Assembly (NCBI GenBank): GCA_905178155.1
Contig: CAJINV010000074.1
Span: 1-11,952 of the forward strand
DNA: 11,952 bases
Origin: Amoebophrya sp. A120
Lineage: Eukaryota > Protista > Dinoflagellata
Direction: 5' to 3'
Shown here: positions 1-11,952 of the stretch, piece after piece
How positions within the stretch are numbered: the first letter of the stretch is position 1
How the letters are laid out: each line of letters opens with the position of its first letter
Notes under the pieces: model-generated
Databases searched by the model: none
Told to the model about the DNA's origin: nothing
The model's input: only the letters and a program-made list of their open reading frames with translations
Position numbers and translations under genes: made by a program

Positions 1-41
1 GCATCACAAGTTTCCAGACCCAGACATTTTTACATTTGATA
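1..41. mobile_element. Element 1, family A, right end only (truncated by the window)
   Basis: TTCCAGACCCAGACATTTTTACATTTGATA at 12-41 matches the family A right TIR. Confidence 0.85.
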
Positions 42-3000
42 GCTGTCCTGCGAAAACGACTCTCCCCGGGCAAATTTTTCCGACGCGGCCAGGTATTATC
101 CTGAGGAAAAACGTGCCCACCCCATAGTCAAGTTGGGATTGGGAACTTAGCAATACAAATCCAGAAGTTTTGGGAGCACCGCATGACAAGTTGCAGTCCG
201 TAGGTTGTAGTGCAGGTTAGCAACGGAAACCGCATCAAAAATCCATCTGCTTATCGTGTGTCCGGCATTACAAATACCAAAACACGACTGGAAATGCCTC
301 TCTTGGGGATGCGCACTGCAGATGTTCCTGTAGTCGCAAATCTGCATGACAACTCTGGGGTGGGGACATTTTTACACAGAATACGTATTTCGCCAGGTTT
401 CGCCCCGTCAAAACGTAGGCGTCGCGAATCGACTGGGAAAAGGACACTTGCCCGTATTTCTTGAAAATCAAGGAGAAAGCGCTTTGGTCGTCGTTGTGAT
501 TCTTAAACCCCGGGAAATTCGGAAACCCCAATACGTTCGGCTCTTCTGTCAGAATCCGTTTATCCTGCACGGCTTCCAACCACTCTTCTAGGATTTTGAT
601 CGCAAGGGGAGTCTTGCGCACGAGAATGATGCCGGACCCAATTTGATTCGATTCGGCGATGGTGGTGTAGTCCATGTTGAGAATATGGGAAGAAAAAAGC
701 ATTACAGTTACACACTGTGATGTTGCAAGACCGGCACCACAGACAGCCTTTCTCATGCAGGAAATGCTTTGGATTCTCATTCCCTTCCTGTGTTCCACCT
801 TTATGTTTCCTGCATTCCAAGTTTTCTCTCTCATGCAGGGAAAATTTGTGCTGCGGAATTGACAACAAATGTGTAACTCTAACTGTAACACTTTTTTCGT
901 GGGATAGAGAAGGAGGAACGCGTCGCGCTTCGTGAAATCGCCCTCCATCATGGGGTATCAACTGCAAAAGTGTCTGGGTCTGGAAACTTGTAATGCTGTG
1001 TCGGGAATAGTGAAAGCTCTGTAATGCACAGGCAAGCATGAGAAATATCTGCGCTTCTTCGTGTTGCGTTTTTCGCATGACAAACTGCGTTTTCGCATGA
1101 CAGGCAAAAGGGTCTGTCTCTTCTTGGACACGCATCACAAACTTTTCGGTCATGCCAGACAAGCATGACAAATCTCGCAATCTTCCAGACCCACACGTTT
1201 TTGCATTTGATATCGGGGTTAAGGTGGCGGACACGTCGGAACCCCGGAGGTAGCGGGCTATGAAGTGCAAATATGTCTGGGTCTGGAAGGATGCAAGTTT
1301 TGTCATGCAGATTTTGTATGATCCATGCCGCCTGTGATGCATGACCTAGCATGATCGCAGCTTTTGAGGGAGCTTCCTTATGCATATGCCTACTTAATCC
1401 GCATGAGAAATGCCATCTCCGTGTAGCAGAAGCAGTAAACTGGGCTCCTGTTGCCAGTCATACAATACAGATTTTTTTACGATCCAAGGACAGCATCACT
1501 AGTTGCAACGTTCCAGACCCAGACATCTTTGGAGTTGATACGGGCGACTAACGGACGGATGTCGTCGAGAAAGGAGATGCCTGGTAGAAGTCGACGGTGT
1601 AATTCAATCTAAAAATCAATATCAAATTCAAAATCGTACAGAAAAAATAAGTGCACAGTAGAAGCCAAGCTAAAGCCAGCTAATCTTTGTCAGGCAATTA
1701 TTAATCTTCTTTGTGTTGAAAGTCAGCATCGCACCGGACGAAGGGGTGCATTTGTGACTTTTCAAATGTTGTCATCATGATAGTTAAAAATCCGTACAAC
1801 TAAACATAGACGAAAGTTTGTTGAAAGAACCGCTCTATATTCATTTTTCAGATCTCGAATCTTTCTGATAGTCACCACACAATAGCAGCGGATGGCGAAA
1901 AAAGCCTCCCGCTCCTGATTGTCAGAGACAAAATGCGTGGTATCTCAAAAAAGTGTCATCATGCGAGGTGGCACATGTGGTCGTATGGTCCTTGCGGTTG
2001 CGTCGATTCTTTACGTATAATATAAAGCAGAGCAGCTGTGACTAACGAAAAGTGGCGAGAATGTATAGCAGATGAGAAGCGAACAGGTGCAACTGAATCT
2101 ATTAACTATCCGCTGCTAGAAAAACTAAAACTTTATTTCCTTGCATGATTTTCATTTTTGGATCCTGCGCACGATATGATAGAGATAGACATTGAACAAG
2201 TAGTTGTCATAGATTGATAAGAGGTCAGTACAACTTCCGCCAGGAGACAAAGAACGTATCTATCATGTGAAAATCTGTAAAATCATACCTGCGTCGGTCC
2301 ACACGAGTATTTCATTTTCCTTCACTTTCTCCCTCAAGGCCTTGAGAATCACGTACGGTTTCCAAACGTAGTACCCCACTTTCCCGCTCGGCGTTTTGTA
2401 CTGGGTCAGCTCCTATGAAATGCAAAAGTGTCTGGGTCTGGAAGAATGCAAGTTTGTCATGCTTATCTGGCATGACTCGAGAATCTGTGTTGCATAGGCA
2501 CGACAGGGCCCTCTTACCTGTCATGCAAAAACGCAGTTTGCCATGCGGAATACGTAAGACATGGCAGCCAAAAAATTTGTCATGCGTAGCTGCGTGCTGC
2601 AGTGCGTCTATCATTCACTTTTAGCATTACAAGTTTCCAGACCCAGACATTTTTGCATTTGATAGCTCCGGAGTGCGGACGTACTCTAGAAGCTCCTTAT
2701 TTTTCACTATCCTGGGTAAAAACGTCCCCACCCCAGCGTCAAGATGGGGAACCTGTGACGCAAATCAGCCAGCTTCGGCTGTTCTTGCGCATGACATCAA
2801 GTTTGGCCTCGTAGTGTAAAAATCCTGTGCGTTTAGCTAGTTCACCAGCGTCACAGATCTGAAATCGCATGCTGATTGGAGCATCACACGAGGACCCGAG
2901 ACTCAATTATAGAAAATGCTTCTCATGGGGCTCCGCATGAGAAACATTTCAAGCATGCAGATTTGCATGACAACTATGAGGTGGGGAAGTTTTTCTTCAG

Positions 3001-6000
3001 AATATTCGCCGTGAACTCTTCATCCAGATCTTCGGCCACCATCCCGTAGGAAATGTCGCACTTTCCGACGGCCACTGCAGTTTCGGAGGATTTTTTCTGG
3101 TCCTCTTCACAGCAATTCATGGCGAAATTTACATGGACAATTCTCTCGTTGGTCAGGAACTCGGACCCCGGCGGCGTGAAGGAAATTTCCGTTTTTGTAG
3201 TAGCCGCGGGAAGAAGAGAATTCGCCCACGCGGCCTGTTTTTTTTTTTTTTTTGGATATGATGTTGATCCACCTGCTGGATGTCCCGGTTGACAAAAGAG
3301 CCCGAACAACCGATCGCGACTCCAAACAAAAGCAGCCGAACTCACGCCAGAAATACCGTCCGACTTTCATCGTGTTTGACCTTTCCACCTCTTCAAAATG
3401 TATCGCATTGAAAAGCTTTTGTTGCTGCCTTCACAACACACAGCGCCCGCGCCCAGAAAAAACCCGAATCAGGTGCGGTTTGTCTCTACGAGTGCGCACT
3501 TGCACACGACTTGAGGAGGTGTTGGGAAGGCAAAAAGCAACCCAAAATCCTGCCAGAAATGCCGTCCGAGTCAGCTCGTGTTTGACCTTTCCACCTCGTG
3601 GAAATTATCACAGAGAAAAGTTTATGTTGCGGCATTCACAAAGACAACAGATCGCGCCCACGAAAAACCCGAATCAGGTGCGGTTTGCCGACAAGGGCGC
3701 GCACTTGCACATGACTTGAGGGGGTGTTGGGAAGGGAAAAAGCGACCCGAAGTCCTTCCAGAAATACCGTTCGACTCCCCTCGTGTTTGAGCTTTCCACC
3801 TCTTGAAAATTATCGCATTGAAAAGTTTGTGTTGCGCGCTTTTCTTTTCAATAGCAATTTATTTTGAAAATTGGCCAGGGCCGGGCGGGACTGCAATGTT
3901 CCCGAAAAAATTGAAAGAAAACGAACCTCGTGTATGAGCGTGCACAGGCGGCTGGCAGGAACGGCCAAGACAAAATTCGGGATGAGGTCGTTTTTGCAAA
4001 ATTGGCGATAGCCGTGCCTAGCAAAATGCATTGAAAAATTCAAAAAAGACGCGCCTCGCGGGCGAACCCGGACAGGCGCGCGGCAGGAACGGCTAAGACG
4101 AAATTCGCGATGAGGTCACTTTTACAAGATTAGCGATAGTGTCACCATTAAAAATGCACTGAAAAATGGAAAAAACACGCACACTGCGTTTGAGGTCGGC
4201 CGGGTCACCGGCAAAAAGTGCAGACCTCAAGAACACCAAAAAGCCCGCCCGTGCCCTCCCCCGACCGCGGCTATCCGGAGCAAAGCCTTTGCGTTTGCCC
4301 GAGCAAATGATAATGATCTTCTATAGGCCACAAAATAAGACGAATGCGTGGCAACACAACAATGAAGCAGTTGTACTTCTTTCCCATATCATGTTGACAA
4401 ATACCTTTTTCTTCTTTCCCGAAGTTCTACTACCGCCCGCTGGACCTTCGGAGTTGTCTTTTCTCCTCACAATTTTCGTCCCAGTGCTGGCAGCACTGCT
4501 GACCCACTCAAACGCCGCCTTCTCCCCGTCTTTCTCCACCGAGGTTATCAGCGGCGTTTATGCATTGCAAATGTGTCTGGGTCGTCTGGAAACTTGTGAT
4601 GCTGGGGGCGTATCATGAGGAGGCCACAAGTGCTGGCTCAGCATGACAAGTATCTGAGCTCCTTCTACATGTTGTCTATTCTGCATGACAAACTGCGTTC
4701 TTTCTGCATGACAAAATTATGGAGCTCTTGGGTAATGTGCACGAGAGATTTAAGAGTCAGGCCAGACAAGCATGACAAACATGCATTCTTCCAGACCCAG
4801 ACATATTTGCACTTGATAGCGTTGCGTCCCGGACGAAACACTGCCGGTCGTTCTGCTCGAACAGATATCCTCTGCAAAAGCATCGTACTTGTAGTAATCG
4901 CATTTATGCATGACAAATATCTTTTTCAAGGTAAATCAACATGAGAAATTCAATTTGTCATGCTGAGCAAATTTGTAATGCGATTACTACTAGATCTAGA
5001 ACTAGTGCGATGCTTCTGCATTTCATAACAGAGCCGCTTCGTTCGCCGCGGTCGCGTGTAGCACGTTCTCGATGTTTGGTCCGTCGCACGTCACGCCGCC
5101 ATATCAAATGTAAAAATGTCTGGGTCTGGAAGACTGCAAGATTTGTCATGCTGATCTGGCATGGCCCTTAAATCTGTATTGCGTGGCCACAAACAGCCTC
5201 TTCCGCCTGTCATGCAAAAACGCAGTTTCTCATGCGGAATAAGCAGCACAGAAGCACGAAGCAACTTGTCATGCTTGACGGCGCATTACAGTGCATTTGT
5301 TATTGACTGACTTGCATCACAAGTTTCCAGACCCAGACATTTTTGCATTTCATACACCACACACGTCCGCACCCAGCTGCGCGCACAGGTTCATCGCGTG
5401 CTTCAACGATTTAAACTTGTAGTCCTCGAGATTGACCACGCTGCCCGCAAGCGAAACCTTGTCGTGGATTGCCCAACCGTTAATGTAGCGCGACGTTGTA
5501 CTAGCACTTCTTGGGGCGGATGAAGTAGAACCTGTTCCAGCTGCAGCAGTTCTTGTGCCACTACTGCTCTCAACAGAGGGAGGCACAGTCGAACTACTGC
5601 TCCCTACTCGAGTTGTGTAAGAATCCGTTGGGTAAGAAGCGGAAGGCGATACGAGAGAGTTCCACTGCTCGACGTAGCCCTTATGCATTGCAAAGGTATC
5701 GCATTCGTATAGATTTAAATGCATTGCAAATTGAAATTTCCTCAGCATTTGTAATGCATATTTGCCTTGGAAAAAAGATTTGTAATGCAAGACTTGCATT
5801 TGTATGAGTACGATACTTTTGCACAGGATAGCCCTCCATCGGGGTAGTCACGTTCCCGGGCGTGCTATGACAGTGCACAACTTTCCCTCCCCCTCACTTG
5901 TCATGCAAAATCCCAAATCCAGTCGCTCTCGCTTCCCTGTGGCTCTGTTTGCATGAGAAATTTCGAAAACCCAAACAGTACTACAGTAGGCACATAAATT

Positions 6001-9000
6001 TGCAATGCACGGGCTCCAGGGTCGCTGGCGTTTGTATTGCTGTTCATGCGATACACATGAGAGGGAGGGGGAGTTGTGCAGTGTCATACGTGCTCGGTGC
6101 GGCGTAGTAGGACTTCCAGGTCCGTCTTCGGGGCGACACACTGGACCTCGACACCCGGATCGGGTGGTTTGCCGGGCCGATATGCGGTTCTCAGGCGTTG
6201 CACTCTCATGATTTGTCATGCAAAAAGACTATCACTCGTCACACGATCAAGCCTTCTTCGCATGCCAACTTCTCGCTGCGCTAAATACCGCCAGAACAAT
6301 CTGTCCGCCAAAATCTGTAATGCAAAAGGCGCAAGAATCTACTTCCTCCTTTCACTTTTGCCATTCTTGCATTACAAATTCATGATGTAACTGAGAATCT
6401 TCCCATAGCCGATGGTCCCGCTGTAGAGGATATCGTAAATCCGGTGTCGCTCATGTTCCGACATGAGTTTTTGAAGCGAGAAAAACACGATGTTCTCAGA
6501 TTTCCCAAACCACCCGTCGGTAGTGACGAACGTGTTTTCCGATTCGTAGAAGTGGATGAAAAACAAGTGGTAGTGAAGAAAATCGTCCTCTGCGAAGGAA
6601 ACCGTCGGCACCCGATCCGTCATGAAGGGGCCGAAACAGAGCCGGTCTAAAGCCCGCGGTAAGTACGTGAATGGGAAGAAGTAAACCAGGGACAACAAAT
6701 CGGTCAAAAACAGCAACCCGCGGTTCGATCCTTTCACGGCTAACAAGTCCATCCCTCGGGTTTTGTGCGGATTGAAGAATTCCGTTTCGACATTGACGTC
6801 CTTTACCCACAGGTAGGGGAACGGATTCCGGACCCAGAAGTGACTGATAGAAACGTACGCCATGTCCATCCCTGCGAGAACGCCGATCCGCATGTAGCCG
6901 AGAACGGACAAGAAGCTGGAGGATTCGGACAACTTCGGTAAACACATGTATTTCTCCAAAGTGTGGTCCAGTTTGGACAACTGCCCGGACGCGACCGACT
7001 TGCACTGCAAATCCAGGCTGTTCTGCTGTTGCGGATCACTGGACAACACGATCCCCAACCCCCCCTGCTTCATACTGTATTTCGCCCGGCGGAGCCAGTT
7101 TTTCAACCAAGTAATGCTCCCCTTATCGACGCTGGTCAAGACGATCCGGTTATTTCGCTGAATTTTCGACAACCGCCAGTAGATCTCGTTGTTGTCCTCT
7201 TTGGTGAGCACCCGCTTCTGCAGGATCTGGGCCTGCATTTCCTCGGTTATGGACGATTGTGGGATAACGTTGACGGCGTGCGGTTTGGCTTGACTGGAGT
7301 TGGGGTCTCCGGAGGAGTTCTGTGCGCTGCTATCTGTGTTCGCATTGCTTGGGTGCACCGGGTAGTCGCTACTACCGTCATTTTCGTTGTAAAATTCGTC
7401 TTCATCTTCCGGTTGCTTAGCCGATACAGACGGTGTGGTGGCGTCCGAGACAGAGCCAGAGGCCGCTATATTCCCACCGGATGATAACGGCATCACCGCT
7501 TCGTCTCGTATGATCCCCGTTTCGCCCTCCGTCCCCTCGTTCTGGTAGTCTGCGTTGTATCAAATGCAAAAATGTCTGGGTCTGGAAGAATACAAACTTG
7601 TGATGCGCATTTCAGCACACAGAAAAATCTCTGATGCATAGGTAGCAAAAGCTGCCCACTTTCTGTCACCAAAGTGGGGGATTTGTCGTGCGCAGTCGGC
7701 ATTGCGGAAGCTTTTCGAAACCTGTGATGCTAGAGCTTCCATGCCAGACCTTCTGCGTCATGCAAAAACAGCATGACTCTTGCAGACCCAGACATTTTTA
7801 CATTTGATACGTTGGAGACCGCTTCCATTTCCATGGGTTTTTTGATCAACTTAATGATCGACTCTTTCACCTGTTCGGTGTAGAGCCCCATGTCACCCAC
7901 CCGCCAGTCCCAGGGGTTCTTCGAATCCATATATTTCGGTGGAGAGTCTAAATCGTCGGTCAACGCCGCTTCCGGCAGATCCAATTTTTGCTTCTTCATC
8001 TCGTTCAATAGATGAACAATCCCAAAGAGCCGCCAGCGGGAATACAGCAATTGGTGCTTCCGGTTCCATATAAAATGCAAATATGGCTAGGTCTGGGAGC
8101 TTGTGATGCAAGGAAGGGAATTATAGGGAGCACACTGATGCATTATTTAATGCGCTGCCAAGCATGACATAGTTTTTCCGTGGTTCTGAGTTGCGTACTC
8201 CGCATGAGAAACTGCGGCTTTGCATGACACGGAAGAGGAGCTCATCTTCGCGGCCACGCAGTACAAAGCTCAGAGTCAACATGCCAGACCAGCATGACAA
8301 CTCTCGCTACCTCCTACCAGAGCACCCAGACATATTTGCGATGCTTATTCCAGATCTGCTCGATCTGCTGGAATCCCCGCTCCAACATGCGGTAAACATC
8401 GCCGTCGGAAAGTAGTATCGCGAACATGCGGAGCGCGTTGGCGGCGATAACGCCGAATGGACACTGGTTGATGACGTCGGAAATGGTGGAGGAAGTCGCA
8501 CTATCAACTGCAAATAGAAATATGTCTGGCTCTGGAAGAGTGCAAACTTGTATTGCGTGTCGAGGAGTCCAGAAAAATCTGTATTGCATGAAAGCAACAA
8601 AAGCGCCACAGTTTGGTGATCAAAAAATACAGTCTGTAATGCGTACTAAGGATGAGAATGCTACACTACTCTTACAGACGCAGTCACTCATGGCCATTCA
8701 GCATCACAAGTTTCCCGACCCAGACATTTTTGCAGTGCATACGCACTGTGCTCTACACTGCTCTGCGACTTGAAGATCACCCCGTCCGCGTGGCTTATCG
8801 CCCACCCGTATCCTGTGTAAAGACGTCTCCTCCCCAGGGTTGTCATGCAAATCTGCATGCTGAAAATGTTTCTCATGCGGAGCCCCATGAGAAGCATTTT
8901 CCAGTGGTGTTTTGGAATTTGTCATGCTCCAATCAGCATGATATACTAGATCTGTGATGCTGCTGAGCTAGCTCAAACAGCATTGCACTACGGGTCCAAA

Positions 9001-11202
9001 TTTGTCATGCAAAACAGCCAAAGCCTGTGGATTTGCCTAGCCGAGTCCCCATCTTGACTATGGGGTGGCGAGGTTTTTGCATAGGATAACCCGAGGCTGG
9101 TTCGGTCGGTTTTCGTTTTCTTTTCCAACAGCCACTCGTTCGCTTCGGTCTTTCCATTGCAAACATGTCTGGGTCTGGAAACTTGTGATGCAAGGAAGGG
9201 AATAATGATCTCACTGTAATGCGCTGCCAAGCGTGCCATGTTTTTTCGTGGGTCTGAGTTGCGCATCCCGCATGAGAAGCTGCATTTTTGCATGACAGAG
9301 AGGAGGAGCTCTTCGCGGCCACGCAATACAGAGCTTAGAGTCATGCCAGACTAGCATGCCAAATCTCGCAATCACCCAGACCACCCAGACATATATGCAT
9401 TTGATACGGTCACCCCCGTCGCCAAAGCCCCCCGGAACTCGTTCCATTCGATCACATTCGGGTCGGGAGATAAGATATGAACTGCAAAAGTATCGCACTC
9501 GTACTAATTACATTTATGCATTACAAATCTTTTTCTTACTCTTAGGGTAAATCTGCATGGCGAATTTAGTTTGTAATGCTGGGCTAATTTGTGATGCAAT
9601 TTATACTAGTACGATGCTTTTGCTTTGCATATAAGATGCAGTCGTCGGCGTTGTCGTCTTCTAAAAAAGTTGGCTTCCCGGTCGCGGAGTCCACGCTGTC
9701 CCAGATTTTCTGTTGCTCAATGTCGAGAAGCTTCAACACCGGCCATTGGGAGGACATGAGAAGGTAGAAATCGGTCGGGATGTGGTAAAAGCAATCCCGG
9801 ACACTGTCCATCGACTCCGCGCCCACGCTATGCTGTGCAAAAGTATCGCACTCGTATAAATGCATTACAAATCTCCTCAGCATGAGAAATAAAATTTGTA
9901 ATGCGAAATTGCCTTAAGAACAGGATTTGTAATGCATGAGTGCAATACGAGTACGATACTTTTGCACAGGATACACGCAGGCGACGAGTTTTCCCAGCGG
10001 GCACCCGGGGATTTGCATATCACATGCAAAAATGTCTGGGTCTGGAAGAATGCAGACTTGTCATGCATATTTCTCATGACCCATGACGCCAGTAATGCTT
10101 GACCTAGCATCGCAGACTTTTAGAGGGCTTCCTGATGCACCTTCCGCATGAGAAATGCCCTGTCCGTGTAGCAAAAACTAAAACTATCCCCCTCTTGCTG
10201 GTCATGCAATACAAATTTTTTTAGAGTCCAAAAACAGCATGACAAGTTGCAATCTTCCAGACCCAGACATTTTTACAGTTGATATTGCAAGGCGTAGCGG
10301 GAAACGTGGTAGTCGGGGGGTTCGTTTTTCGCCACCGCGTCGGAAACGAGGTTGAGGTATTTGGTCCAAAAGGGGTCTTCTCGTACGCAATCGGGGTCGT
10401 AGAACTGCCGCCCGACGTTCGTAGCGGACGCGGTTGTTGCGACAAGCAGGGATAGTACTGGCAGGAGATGTATGAAATGTAAAAATGTCTGGGTCTGGAA
10501 GGTTGGAACTTGTCATGCTAAATCTGAATCATGTAAAAATCTGTGTTGCATGAGTGCCAAAAGCTGTCCAGTTTTGACCTAATCGAGAGGCAGTTTCTCA
10601 TGCAGGATAGGCATGATAGAACTCTCACGGAATCTGTCATGCTATGTCCTCCATACCAGAACTCATGGGTCATGGAAAACCTGCATGACAAGTCTGGCAT
10701 TCTTCCAGACCCAGACACTTTTACATTTGATAAGATGCTGGAGTAGTCCCCTGCTTGCACATAGGAAAAATGTTGATCCACCACGACCTATTGCTCCTCT
10801 TCTTGGTTTTTTCCTTCGTCCGTTCGTCTGACAGTCGTTCCTGTGGAAGTTGTCCACCTGCTCGTCCCGCGATAGCATTTCTCGGTCGTGTAGGCCCCCG
10901 CTGCATCTTGAAGAAGATGCAGTCATCTTTGTGCAATTGGCACAAGAAGTAGCTCTCGCAGGCGCGGTTCTTGCAGAAGCCGCAGCACTTGTAGCTGTAG
11001 TTGCTCTCCTCTCAGCTGAACAAGACGAGGTAGGACTAGTACGAGAGACGACCATGCGACAGGAGGTTTCATCCACGACCCCCAACATCGCCGCTCGCTT
11101 CCGACGTTTGCGTCTTGCAGTAGAAGCTCCGCCTGTTGTTCCGCCAGGACAAGAACTGCGTGAGGACAGTGTAGATGATGGTGATGCAGCTCCTGTACTC
11201 AT
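42..11202 (-). CDS. Large 24-exon gene (at least 1390 aa, 3' end beyond the window): probable membrane-anchored multi-domain glycosyltransferase-like protein
   Basis: Exons in transcript order, each including both flanking TSD copies (one 5-bp copy is dropped per element): 11202-10733, 10470-10285, 10017-9974, 9828-9632, 9475-9407, 9150-9089, 8808-8742, 8501-8348, 8068-7810, 7557-6408, 6180-6089, 5865-5831, 5681-5355, 5101-5028, 4865-4819, 4558-4405, 3234-3005, 2707-2665, 2413-2289, 1580-1541, 1258-1213, 955-907, 683-384, 96-42. Total 4275 - 21x5 = 4170 nt = 1390 codons with no stop. The ATG at 11202 is in AAAATG context with an in-frame TGA two codons upstream. Junctions rebuild coherent sequence, e.g. 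LLQHL|LPVLSLLV, CAQLGADVCG|GVTC, EEFTA|KNKELL, VWTDA|GISFLDDIRPL, FTKRDAFLLL|NMDY. Confidence 0.9.
97..383. mobile_element. Element 2, family B introner/MITE, 287 bp
   Basis: TIR TATCCTGAGGAAAAACGTGCCCACCCC ... GGGGTGGGGACATTTTTACACAGAATA; TSD GGTAT/CGTAT (1 mismatch). Confidence 0.88.
684..906. mobile_element. Element 3, family D introner/MITE, 223 bp
   Basis: TIR TATGGGAAGAAAAAAGCATTACAGTTA ... TAACTGTAACACTTTTTTCGTGGGATA; perfect TSD GAGAA; removal gives FTKRDAFLLLNMDY. Confidence 0.9.
956..1212. mobile_element. Element 4, family A, 257 bp
   Basis: TATCAACTGCAAAAGTGTCTGGGTCTGGAA ... TTCCAGACCCACACGTTTTTGCATTTGATA; TSD TGGGG/TCGGG (1 mismatch). Confidence 0.9.
1259..1540. mobile_element. 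Element 5, family A, 282 bp
   Basis: Family A TIRs; perfect TSD CGGGC. Confidence 0.92.
1581..2288 (-). other. Canonical GT-AG spliceosomal intron, 708 bp
   Basis: Donor CAG|GTATGA at 2289/2288 and acceptor TTCTACCAG|GC at 1581/1580; AT-rich; splicing rebuilds ILVWTDAGISFLDDIRPL. Confidence 0.88.
2414..2664. mobile_element. Element 6, family A, 251 bp
   Basis: Family A TIRs; perfect TSD GCTCC. Confidence 0.92.
2708..3004. mobile_element. Element 7, family B, 297 bp
   Basis: TATCCTGGGTAAAAACGTCCCCACCCC ... GAGGTGGGGAAGTTTTTCTTCAGAATA; TSD TTCAC/TTCGC (1 mismatch). Confidence 0.88.
3346..3839. repeat. Diverged tandem repeat, about 205-206 bp unit, about 2.4 copies
   Basis: CCAGAAAT(A/G)CCGT...CGTGTTTGA(C/G)CTTTCCACCTC recurs at 3347, 3553 and 3758; AAAAACCCGAATCAGGTGCGGTTTG is present in both full copies. 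Confidence 0.9.
3944..4182. repeat. Diverged tandem repeat, 128 bp unit, about 2 copies
   Basis: ACAGGCG...GGCAGGAACGGC(C/T)AAGAC(A/G)AAATTCG(G/C)GATGAGGTC...AAAATGCA(T/C)TGAAAAAT starts at 3944 and 4072. Confidence 0.85.
4559..4818. mobile_element. Element 8, family A, 260 bp
   Basis: Family A TIRs, the left one with a 3-bp duplication (GGGTCGTCTGGA); perfect TSD GCGTT. Confidence 0.92.
4866..5027. mobile_element. Element 9, family C, 162 bp
   Basis: TATCCTCTGCAAAAGCATCGTACT ... AGTGCGATGCTTCTGCATTTCATA; perfect TSD ACAGA. Confidence 0.92.
5102..5354. mobile_element. Element 10, family A, 253 bp
   Basis: Family A TIRs; TSD CGCCA/CACCA (1 mismatch). Confidence 0.9.
5682..5830. mobile_element. 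Element 11, family C, 149 bp
   Basis: TATGCATTGCAAAGGTATCGCATTC ... GAGTACGATACTTTTGCACAGGATA; perfect TSD GCCCT. Confidence 0.92.
5866..6088. mobile_element. Element 12, family E, 223 bp
   Basis: TATGACAGTGCACAACTTTCCCTCCCCCTCA ... TGAGAGGGAGGGGGAGTTGTGCAGTGTCATA; perfect TSD CGTGC. Confidence 0.92.
6181..6407. mobile_element. Element 13, family F (degenerate TIRs), 227 bp
   Basis: TATGCGGTTCTCAG...CATGATTTGTCATGCAA ... TTGCATTACAAATTCATG...CTGAGAATCTTCCCATA; perfect TSD GCCGA; removal keeps the frame (SGTIG|PANHP). Confidence 0.85.
6620..7160 (-). other. Degenerate nucleotide-diphospho-sugar transferase (GT77 / PF03407-like) domain
   Basis: IVLTSVDKGSITWLKNWL...IVLSSD...C...GMDMAYVSISHFWVRNPFPYL...LLAVKGSNRGLLFL follows the GT77 pattern (NW...D...C...GxDxxxxDxDxxWxRNPFPYL), but has SIS where DxD is expected. 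Confidence 0.55.
7558..7809. mobile_element. Element 14, family A, 252 bp
   Basis: Family A TIRs; perfect TSD CGTTG. Confidence 0.92.
8069..8347. mobile_element. Element 15, family A (degenerate TIRs), 279 bp
   Basis: TATAAAATGCAAATATGGCTAGGTCTGGGA ... CCCAGACATATTTGCGATGCTTA; perfect TSD TTCCA. Confidence 0.88.
8502..8741. mobile_element. Element 16, family A, 240 bp
   Basis: Family A TIRs, the left one with a short insertion; perfect TSD CGCAC. Confidence 0.9.
8809..9088. mobile_element. Element 17, family B, 280 bp, inverted relative to elements 2 and 7
   Basis: TATCCTGTGTAAAGACGTCTCCTCCCC ... GGGGTGGCGAGGTTTTTGCATAGGATA; perfect TSD ACCCG. Confidence 0.92.
9151..9406. mobile_element. 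Element 18, family A, 256 bp
   Basis: Left end TTTCCATTGCAAACATGTCTGGGTCTGGAA (TTT instead of TAT); perfect TSD CGGTC. Confidence 0.9.
9476..9631. mobile_element. Element 19, family C, 156 bp
   Basis: TATGAACTGCAAAAGTATCGCACT ... AGTACGATGCTTTTGCTTTGCATA; perfect TSD TAAGA. Confidence 0.92.
9829..9973. mobile_element. Element 20, family C, 145 bp
   Basis: TATGCTGTGCAAAAGTATCGCACTCGTA ... TACGAGTACGATACTTTTGCACAGGATA; perfect TSD CACGC. Confidence 0.92.
10018..10284. mobile_element. Element 21, family A, 267 bp
   Basis: Family A TIRs; perfect TSD TTGCA. Confidence 0.92.
10471..10732. mobile_element. Element 22, family A, 262 bp
   Basis: Family A TIRs; perfect TSD AGATG. Confidence 0.92.
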
Positions 11203-11439
11203 TTTTCAGCACTGTGGCGCGGCCCCCGAAGCCGTGCTGCTAATTATTTTTACAAGTGTTTCGGCTTTAATACAGCAACGCTCCATGACAGTTGGTTGTT
11301 GCAGCGGCCATCTTGCTGCGAAGAGAGCGGGCGCACAGGTAAGAAAAAAGCGCAAGGGGTCTAGATGTAGATGATGACTCGGGCCGACAATAGAAACATG
11401 CACGTGGTGATCTTACTTTTACTGAACAAGCTAGAGCAG

Positions 11440-11952
11440 AGAAATCTGCATTGATGCGGATTCGATCTTGCATCTAAACGAAAAGCCAAAAAAAGTAGTC
11501 TTTTTCCGGGCTACTAGTTTTCGACTACTTTATTTCCCACCACGCCCAGAGGAAAGAAAACCAGCCGAAGAAATGGCCACATCATTAACAGAATCCGCTC
11601 GGGGAAAAATTATCTCTAGAATCTGCATTGCAGATTCAATACTCATCTTGCATCTACCGAAAAAGAGAGGCCAAAGCAACCAACTTTTTTTCTCGCCGCG
11701 AGTTTTTTCTCCTCGCCGCGAGGAGAAAAAACCGCCCGAAAAAGTGGCTCGTCGACGTCGATAAGTATCCTCTACAAAAAAATCTGCATTGCAGGTTCAA
11801 TCTTGCATCGATCTAACGAAAAAGAGAGGCCAAAAAAGGTCCCGCAATTTCTCGCCGCGAGTTTTTGTGCCCCGCCGCGGGGCGAAAAACTGCAGCCCCG
11901 GAAGGGGCCCTCCCCCCGGAATCCGCTCGGGGAAAAGTCTCCTCTACAGAAA
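11440..11952. repeat. Diverged tandem repeat upstream of the gene, about 160-177 bp unit, 3 copies, likely continuing past the window
   Basis: AATCTGCATTG...ATCTTGCATC...CGAAAA recurs at 11443, 11620 and 11781; GAATCCGCTCGGGGAAAA occurs twice; units carry palindromes. Confidence 0.85.

Follow-up and report, generated by a model that had tools for sequence, protein, structure and literature searches.

The 21 complete inverted-repeat elements found in the window (the whole 11,952-nt stretch analysed here, from a contig of Amoebophrya sp. A120) are transposon-derived introns of an Amoebophrya, because they are removed together with 5 nt in RNA-type contigs and the spliced product aligns with a protein of Amoebophrya sp. 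A25. Three of the six bases of their terminal TAT and ATA are conserved according to gene direction and likely mark splice signals. The elements are real, and such elements are ordinary in this organism; their end signature is by itself no novelty, having already been published for A120 introners (PMC7789003). What appears to be new is a proposed fixed splice register and a three-base direction-dependent code, which we did not find in print: the literature searched held no published splice register or three-base code for Amoebophrya introners, supplementary figures and tables S19-S25, S4 and S7 of Farhat et al. aside.

Elements of the host gene and their removal

All 21 complete elements, of 145–297 bp, interrupt one minus-strand gene, and a further copy is cut at the window edge (1–41). 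The features are listed below with the state of the 5-bp target-site duplication (TSD) and the evidence for removal.

42..11508, minus strand: host gene, running off the left end of the window; 1391-aa open frame without the 21 elements (plus 5 nt each) and two GT-AG introns
1..41: E1, family A, single end, cut by the window edge
97..383: E2, family B, TSD 4/5; minus-strand intron 384->93, joint 92/385, skips 292; at most 4 TSD bases kept upstream
684..906: E3, family D, TSD 5/5; joint skips 228
956..1212: E4, family A, TSD 4/5; joint 949/1212, skips 262, slide 2; at least 4 kept upstream
1259..1540: E5, family A, TSD 5/5; joint skips 287
1581..2288, minus strand: canonical GT-AG intron, 708 nt, donor GTATGA; contig joint skips 708
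2414..2664: E6, family A, TSD 5/5; joint skips 256
2708..3004: E7, family B, TSD 4/5; joint 2702/3005, skips 302, slide 3; at least 2 kept upstream
3235..4404, minus strand: canonical GT-AG intron, 1170 nt, donor GTATTT; inferred from contig coordinates
4559..4818: E8, family A, TSD 5/5; joint skips 265
4866..5027: E9, family C, TSD 5/5; joint skips 167
5102..5354: E10, family A, TSD 4/5; joint 5096/5355, skips 258, slide 1; at least 4 kept upstream
5682..5830: E11, family C, TSD 5/5; removal by summed lengths
5866..6088: E12, family E (TAT end, without G9 or AAA), TSD 5/5; removal by summed lengths
6181..6407: E13, family F (TAT end, without AAA), TSD 5/5; removal by summed lengths
7558..7809: E14, family A, TSD 5/5; removal from frame and orthologue alignment, no direct RNA-contig joint
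8069..8347: E15, family A, TSD 5/5; sense 5' end TAA (position 3 changed); removal by summed lengths
8502..8741: E16, family A, TSD 5/5; removal by summed lengths
8809..9088: E17, family B, TSD 5/5; removal by summed lengths
9151..9406: E18, family A, TSD 5/5; sense 3' end TTT (position 2 changed); removal by summed lengths
9476..9631: E19, family C, TSD 5/5; removal by summed lengths
9829..9973: E20, family C, TSD 5/5; removal by summed lengths
10018..10284: E21, family A, TSD 5/5; removal by summed lengths
10471..10732: E22, family A, TSD 5/5; adjoining contig pieces skip 267 nt (262 + 5)

The family tallies and copy numbers of a preliminary description of this DNA were reproduced on recount, with 11 complete and one partial copy of family A, three of B, four of C, and one each of D, E and F in the window. 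That description had overlooked the 5-bp TSDs, present at 21/21 complete elements (17 perfect, four with one mismatch), as well as the single reading frame that is reopened when each element is removed with 5 nt. Such removal yields a minus-strand frame of 1132 aa; when 0, 1, 3, 4 or 6 nt are taken out besides the element, the longest frame is at most 551 aa. Removal of the element with 2 nt was considered and rejected: it gives a 1147-aa frame too, but all joints shown are of the element plus 5 nt.

The transcript evidence consists of contigs from runs X1–X4, which derive from one sample and are presumed to be RNA. All nine element joints in these contigs skip the element plus 5 nt exactly, contig coordinates give the same result for E22, and ten more elements fit by summed lengths; in these presumed-RNA runs of one sample the elements are thus missing from transcript contigs without having GT-AG ends. 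The spliced 1391-aa product is 57% identical over 1292 columns to the A25 protein, the best named match of the host protein being from Amoebophrya sp. A25 (57–76%). In its C-terminal part the product is similar to proteins of dinoflagellates that carry the annotation of nucleotide-diphospho-sugar transferase-domain proteins. A Pfam search with the eight unspliced window frames and an Rfam search of the window gave no match.

Some other features of the window were observed. The canonical intron at 3235–4404 contains tandem repeats (205 bp x2.4 and 128 bp x1.9) and has an A-run, with no pyrimidine tract, before its CAG. Within canonical intron 2288->1581, 39 nt from its 3' end, a worn end-like motif is present (1620–1633); this intron may be an old element that became canonical. 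Repeat units of ~172 bp at 11440–11952, beyond the start of the transcript contig, show higher depth in run X5 and contain motifs resembling element ends, TATCCTCTACAAAA and TCTGCATTGCAG. The raw RNA runs X10 and X9 include B-like and A-like ends from other loci, 90–99% like window 9006–9059 and 10471–10555, and leave the host gene uncovered.

The position of the cut within the TSD was approached through the four imperfect duplications, where the letters retained in the X1–X4 contigs show how many TSD bases can have stayed upstream: at most 4 at E2, at least 4 at E4 and E10, and at least 2 at E7. Since these limits admit no other single value, we infer that one fixed cut must keep 4 bases, so that the intron would read N-TAT...ATA-NNNN, from 1 nt before the left end to 4 nt after the right end. 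This register is based on three informative introns in presumed-RNA contigs of one sample, and a variable cut would fit the four cases with ~6% chance under uniform choice. A cut keeping one TSD base upstream, which would place an AG-like A at -2, is excluded at E4, E7 and E10; nor is there conservation of the outer 3' A. The direction of the TSD mismatches, taken as a second test of the register, gave no signal.

Families and their common ends

According to the preliminary description, at least six families share one signature, TAT(C/G)-NNN-TG(C/T)AAA. Its first part stands, as 40/42 ends of complete elements start with TAT (TAA at 8347 and TTT at 9151 depart from this), whereas the full motif occurs in only 25/42 ends: 17/22 in family A, 6/8 in C, 2/6 in B, and 0/2 in each of D, E and F. 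Within families A–D both G9 and AAA at positions 11–13 were confirmed at 36/38 ends; AAA is found in 0/4 ends of families E and F, and T8 is absent from family D. Common to the six window families are only TAT and a position 4 that is mostly C or G. The exact motif occurs 26 times in the window, against 0.11 times expected (200 shuffles). Variability at positions 4–7 had been illustrated with the end pairs TATCCTC/TATGAAA (4866–5027) and TATGGGA/TATCCCA (684–906), both quoted correctly, and holds throughout: the two ends of an element have the same base at positions 4, 5, 6 and 7 in 8, 13, 17 and 10 of the 21 cases, in contrast to 18–21 of 21 at positions 1–3, 9 and 11–13.

A paired search on family A positions 17–30 yielded at least 134 overlapping loci (860 kb), all of one accession prefix, and all six window families have relatives among the loci listed. 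There, 160 family-A copies selected on positions 17–30, with no use of positions 1–16, carry TAT at a fixed offset in 298/320 ends and a 5-bp TSD in 146/160 cases (126 perfect, 20 with one mismatch), and a 6-bp TSD in 0/160. A de novo search of the same loci for inverted repeats flanked by 5-bp repeats, in which TAT was not required, gave 384 calls starting with TAT out of 401; a shuffled control gave four calls. The resulting catalogue comprises, among the loci listed, at least 498 elements in 14 families of three or more members and 22 singles, with median lengths of 112–321 bp. Short, non-coding and multicopy, with terminal inverted repeats (TIRs) and a constant TSD, the elements are MITEs. 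TAT is the part common to the 14 families, in a set that required it, and position 4 is C or G in 88% of cases across these families of the loci listed, at equal family weights and under the same requirement. Insertions occur in both orientations across families with no orientation or target-base preference, and no TSD base bias (G at TSD position 5, AG at 3–4) was found in copies among the loci listed.

All 14 families also contain an internal repeat, T(G/C)T(A/C/G)ATGC, at 8.5–19.5 per kb, against 1.3 per kb outside the elements of the loci listed. It resembles subterminal transposase-binding repeats and, because it is common to all 14 families, would by this analogy support a single transposon lineage. 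Nearest-neighbour identity is 83–89% at the median and TSD copies differ at 3.7% of sites among the loci listed, a comparison suggestive of numerous master lineages and of insertions that are fairly young. Certain 13-nt end types are identical between unrelated families of these loci, one being present in 32 family-A ends and 24 family-C ends. Two 1.1-kb TAT...ATA elements (L012:505-1608 and L058:11756-12903) have unlike ends and similar internal translated stretches, and thus contain captured or nested sequence, and an array of 17-bp palindromic units at L014:3605-3787 is unrelated to the TAT families. No viral contig with a family-A end was found.

Conservation of the ends after insertion

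The preliminary description had read the conserved-variable-conserved pattern of the ends as sequence recognition rather than end pairing. This fits the data better, because positions 4–7 do not covary. Among the loci listed, the covariation test proposed there gave nothing in family A (0.600 observed vs 0.598 permuted, n=217) or in families C, B and G, and the excess that families D and E show at positions 4–7 disappears once interior-defined subfamilies are considered separately (28 and 6 copies, respectively). Between the two ends G.U mismatches are not in excess over A.C mismatches (99 vs 93; 278 vs 269). Positions 4–7 represent a few multi-base types common to families A and C of the loci listed. 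Positions 10 and 14 of the family A TIR covary between ends even within interior subfamilies (p=0.001), with no G.U bias; this covariation, while positions 4–7 assort freely, suggests end sub-types or end exchange.

The proposal of one signature for one factor was not supported. G9 and AAA decay at the background rate after insertion without side bias, a behaviour that for G9 the preliminary description itself had named as contrary to its reading, and TAT splits by gene direction. Among the loci listed, changes on the two sides number 8 vs 8 of 270 at position 9 and 6/7, 5/6 and 9/6 of 343 at positions 11–13, and these frequencies of 1.5–3% are like those of other conserved TIR sites and of the TSD clock. 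Given this background-rate decay on both sides, G9 and AAA are likely transposase signals, conserved among masters and not after insertion. The comparison of exonic with non-genic copies has no power, as just 34/396 copies, with one variant, lie outside a 100-aa frame.

For TAT itself, the expectation of conservation after insertion holds for three of its six bases, selected by gene direction, and fails for the other three, which change at about the background rate. Ends were located by weight matrices on positions 8–30 only, which gave 443 pairs; 419 were in register and 24/443, out of register, were left out. Two window copies were added to reach 421, of which 396 could be oriented by the coding strand (377 further copies and 19 from the window) and 25/421 could not. 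In these 396 copies of the loci listed and the window, changes at positions 1, 2 and 3 number 0, 1 and 10 at the sense 5' end, and 9, 6 and 1 at the sense 3' end (Fisher p=1.2e-4). Held are two bases of the sense 5' TAT, its first T and its A, and one of the sense 3' ATA, the inner A; the mirror positions change at about the background rate. With ~9–12 changes expected per site, the held sites have P=4e-6, 7e-5 and 8e-4, two of the remaining three behave neutrally, and the third is borderline (0.04). A side bias of comparable size is not seen at control positions (A 66 vs 67 /2173; T 48 vs 37 /1552; C 51 vs 35; G 35 vs 46). The asymmetry persists without the window copies (0,1,9 / 9,5,1), with perfect TSDs only (0,1,10 / 7,5,1) and in the strictest subset of 267 copies (0,1,8 / 4,3,1); two variants in L042, which have a TSD in common, are perhaps not independent. 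Both TAT exceptions of the window, E15 at sense 5' position 3 and E18 at sense 3' position 2, obey the rule. At 5' position 3, 8/10 changes are to C, which is not clearly above the control spectrum (28/48).

In a register of 4, the held bases become U+2, A+3 and A-7. Given this register, U+2 and a purine at +3 show 0 and 1 changes in 396 copies, the one being A to G, and A-7 likewise shows 1 change in 396. Among the same copies (loci listed and window) a GT...AG reading is possible in just 8/396, with GT in 130 and AG in 34; G at +1 (130/396, against 0.30 in the flanks) is not under selection, and there is no pair bias at (-1,+1) (p=0.14). Ordinary spliceosomal introns differ in showing selection for G at +1 and a (-1,+1) pair bias. 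The G+1 and AG 3' end of U2-type spliceosomal introns are not found as a rule in these elements.

Two probable codes in the element ends and the alternatives

The preliminary description had left the choice between a transposase lineage and a host excision factor; both appear to apply, to different letters, the first as a putative transposase lineage and the second as an RNA excision step. That the element ends are read in two ways is, in our view, probable. We also favour, with somewhat less assurance, the fuller statement that they are ends of non-autonomous DNA transposons with two overlapping codes, one for a putative transposase and one for the host splicing machinery. A DDE transposase making a 5-bp staggered cut would recognise the internal T(G/C)T(A/C/G)ATGC repeats as well as TAT and G9/AAA, and the letters that it reads would stay fixed among active masters only. 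In the RNA, a relaxed spliceosome would read U+2/A+3 as a donor with +1 free, an assignment that we rate somewhat above even. A-7 would then be used as the branch point, a tentative candidacy, and the 3' cut would be set by distance, without AG, deleting exactly one target duplication. The long inverted repeat would hold the element ends together, and the hairpin may stand in for end-definition factors. Since TAT becomes ATA when reversed, both signals would be present whichever way the element lies. The whole scheme, a U1-less spliceosome that removes tens of thousands of transposon introns by a three-letter palindromic-end code (U+2, A+3, A-7) with neither G+1 nor AG and with the 3' cut set by a ruler, is a possibility that we hold with reserve.

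Several observations bear on the parts of this scheme. The predicted hairpin is strong (E10, z=-3.4) with positions 8–30 mostly paired, and no selection on single hairpin pairs was seen. Both canonical donors of the host gene are GTAT. Among 47 predicted canonical donors of loci L004-L076, a noisy set in which GTA was forced and a few missed elements are included, 53% are GTAT and 21% GTAC; against a mirror control the excess of GTAT is smaller (76 vs 48), and an initial 8-fold enrichment over mid-exon sequence was set aside as partly due to AT-richness. An A at -7 is no fixed feature of the predicted canonical introns (38%, equal to background), nothing resembling a U2-pairing branch motif was found upstream of the -7 A of the elements, and position 5 is without side bias. 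The 47 predicted introns have A-rich, G-poor 3' ends, and their donors are weak beyond +4. In the accessible part of Farhat et al. 2021 (PMC7789003), U1 snRNA and snRNP27 are undetected in A120 and nearly all other spliceosome parts are found. Loss of SNRNP27K/METTL16 accompanies +4U donors in yeasts, and fixed short branch-to-acceptor distances are known in yeasts, Trichomonas and Giardia (PMC2483917, in part).

The fixed register, cutting 1 nt before and 4 nt after the element, and the three direction-dependent bases make single-base predictions that are directly testable. If true, they set a minimum of what a spliceosome needs at intron ends, explain how this transposon lineage could spread through exons with no preference for target or orientation, an insertion at whatever site and in either orientation becoming a scarless intron, and give a rule for re-annotating these introns. 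How Amoebophrya removes its more than 60% of non-canonical introns is stated as open in the available text of Farhat et al. 2021 (PMC7789003).

The same elements and the same three held bases could instead be served by removal outside the spliceosome, where an endonuclease and ligase, or a euglenid-like route with circles, would read the bases at the mouth of the hairpin. The lack of G+1, AG and a branch consensus, the strong predicted hairpin, the undetected U1 and the euglenid precedent, with TIRs, TSD-like repeats and circular products (accessible part of PMC11282704), all speak for such a route; we nevertheless think it unlikely, since the held 5' bases match +2/+3 of the host canonical donor and are placed exactly there by the register, nearly all other spliceosome parts are reported from A120 in the source text available, and the U2 spliceosome of Fritillaria, in the accounts at hand, removes transposon-derived non-canonical introns. 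A purely DNA-level reading, in which the whole signature including TAT is a transposase recognition site and splicing needs no particular end bases, is disfavoured as improbable. It would account for the ends, TSD length and internal motif shared across 14 families of the loci listed and for the unbiased decay of G9 and AAA, yet a DNA-level factor is blind to gene direction after insertion, and strand mutation bias alone leaves unexplained why two T's of the sense strand, only two positions from each other, have 0 and 10 changes.

Excision defined by simple pairing of the two ends in a hairpin has in its favour the long inverted repeats and the covarying TIR positions 10 and 14 of family A, and is made very improbable by the free assortment at positions 4–7, by G.U being no commoner than A.C, and by the holding of only one partner within each terminal pair. 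Direct repeats with hairpins are the classic setting for template switching, so the joints might also be reverse-transcriptase artefacts, or the elements might leave at the DNA level by programmed elimination. Both repeats and hairpins are present and runs X1–X4 are only presumed RNA, but two GT-AG introns are missing from the same contigs, contigs of run X5 continue through elements into their flanks, no frame is open without removal, the spliced product matches its orthologue along the alignment, and direction-dependent selection points to RNA; these origins are scarcely credible.

Published A120 introners have inverted-repeat ends of the form TAT-N7-AAA (TAT, seven variable bases and three or more A) and a direct repeat of 3-5 nt at the exon/intron boundary (accessible part of Farhat et al. 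2021, PMC7789003). The window elements agree in the AAA of families A–D (families E and F keep only TAT), in a direct repeat that here is 5 bp at all complete elements, and in removal without GT-AG; in the same part of that paper, splice sites are variable with the border unknown, and no fixed register, direction-dependent conservation or internal repeat is described. Introns of Fritillaria borealis are also MITE-derived, with TIRs that supply splice signals, and are removed by the U2 spliceosome (10.1101/2025.08.15.670264; PMC11282704, both in part); they favour the dinucleotides AG-AC and AG-AT and keep U1, unlike the window elements, whose +1 base and final four bases come from the host and are free. 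Euglenid nonconventional introns share terminal pairing offset from the cuts, TSD-like repeats and the lack of GT-AG, and differ in their pairing of +4..+6 with -8..-6 and circular products (PMC11282704, in part), whereas offsets here are 1 and 4 and conservation is one-sided. As for the candidate branch A, introns of Yarrowia, Candida, Trichomonas and Giardia have their 3' splice site at a fixed short distance from the branch A, the 3-nt spacing reported for C. guilliermondii placing this A at -7 by our count; unlike the window elements, those introns have a strong WCTRAY motif and AG (PMC2483917, in part).

Neither a transposase nor an autonomous element was found in the 860 kb of overlapping loci, a small part of the genome. 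Pfam searches with 91/141 ORFs of at least 250 aa returned housekeeping domains only and no transposase domain, no transposase frame was recognisable by eye in the six long single elements, and four long TAT pairs, examined as autonomous candidates, looked like chance pairings and were rejected. Ginger1 and Ginger2 elements have TG..CA termini, unlike the TAT..ATA of the window elements. IS3EU/GingerRoot elements (PMC10045372, in part) have TA..TA termini as here, although their TSD is usually 6 bp, compared with 5 bp here (6 bp in 0/160).

Aligners slide joints inside a TSD, and therefore the dinucleotides annotated for published introner family 1 are not independent support for the register. 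These ends are NT in 892 and AN in 864 of 1322 (Gozashti et al. 2025, PMC12130899, in part). Among the 56 A120 rows of Dataset S7 covered here (of 58), most introner families are classed by the same study as 'TIR DNA, Unknown', and its accessible part mentions neither a common TAT lineage nor a splice code. Farhat et al. 2021 (PMC7789003), as far as available, likewise found no transposase in A120. The best lead to the mobiliser is published family 38, described in the accessible part of PMC12130899 with '5-bp TSD, TA/TA Termini', homology to Copia/Gypsy and no Ginger termini; the integrase-like DDE enzyme of IS3EU/GingerRoot would fit this homology. An 873-bp element at L066:13016-13888, with its own TIR, a perfect 5-bp TSD and no recognised transposase frame, has a length near that of family 38 (808 bp).
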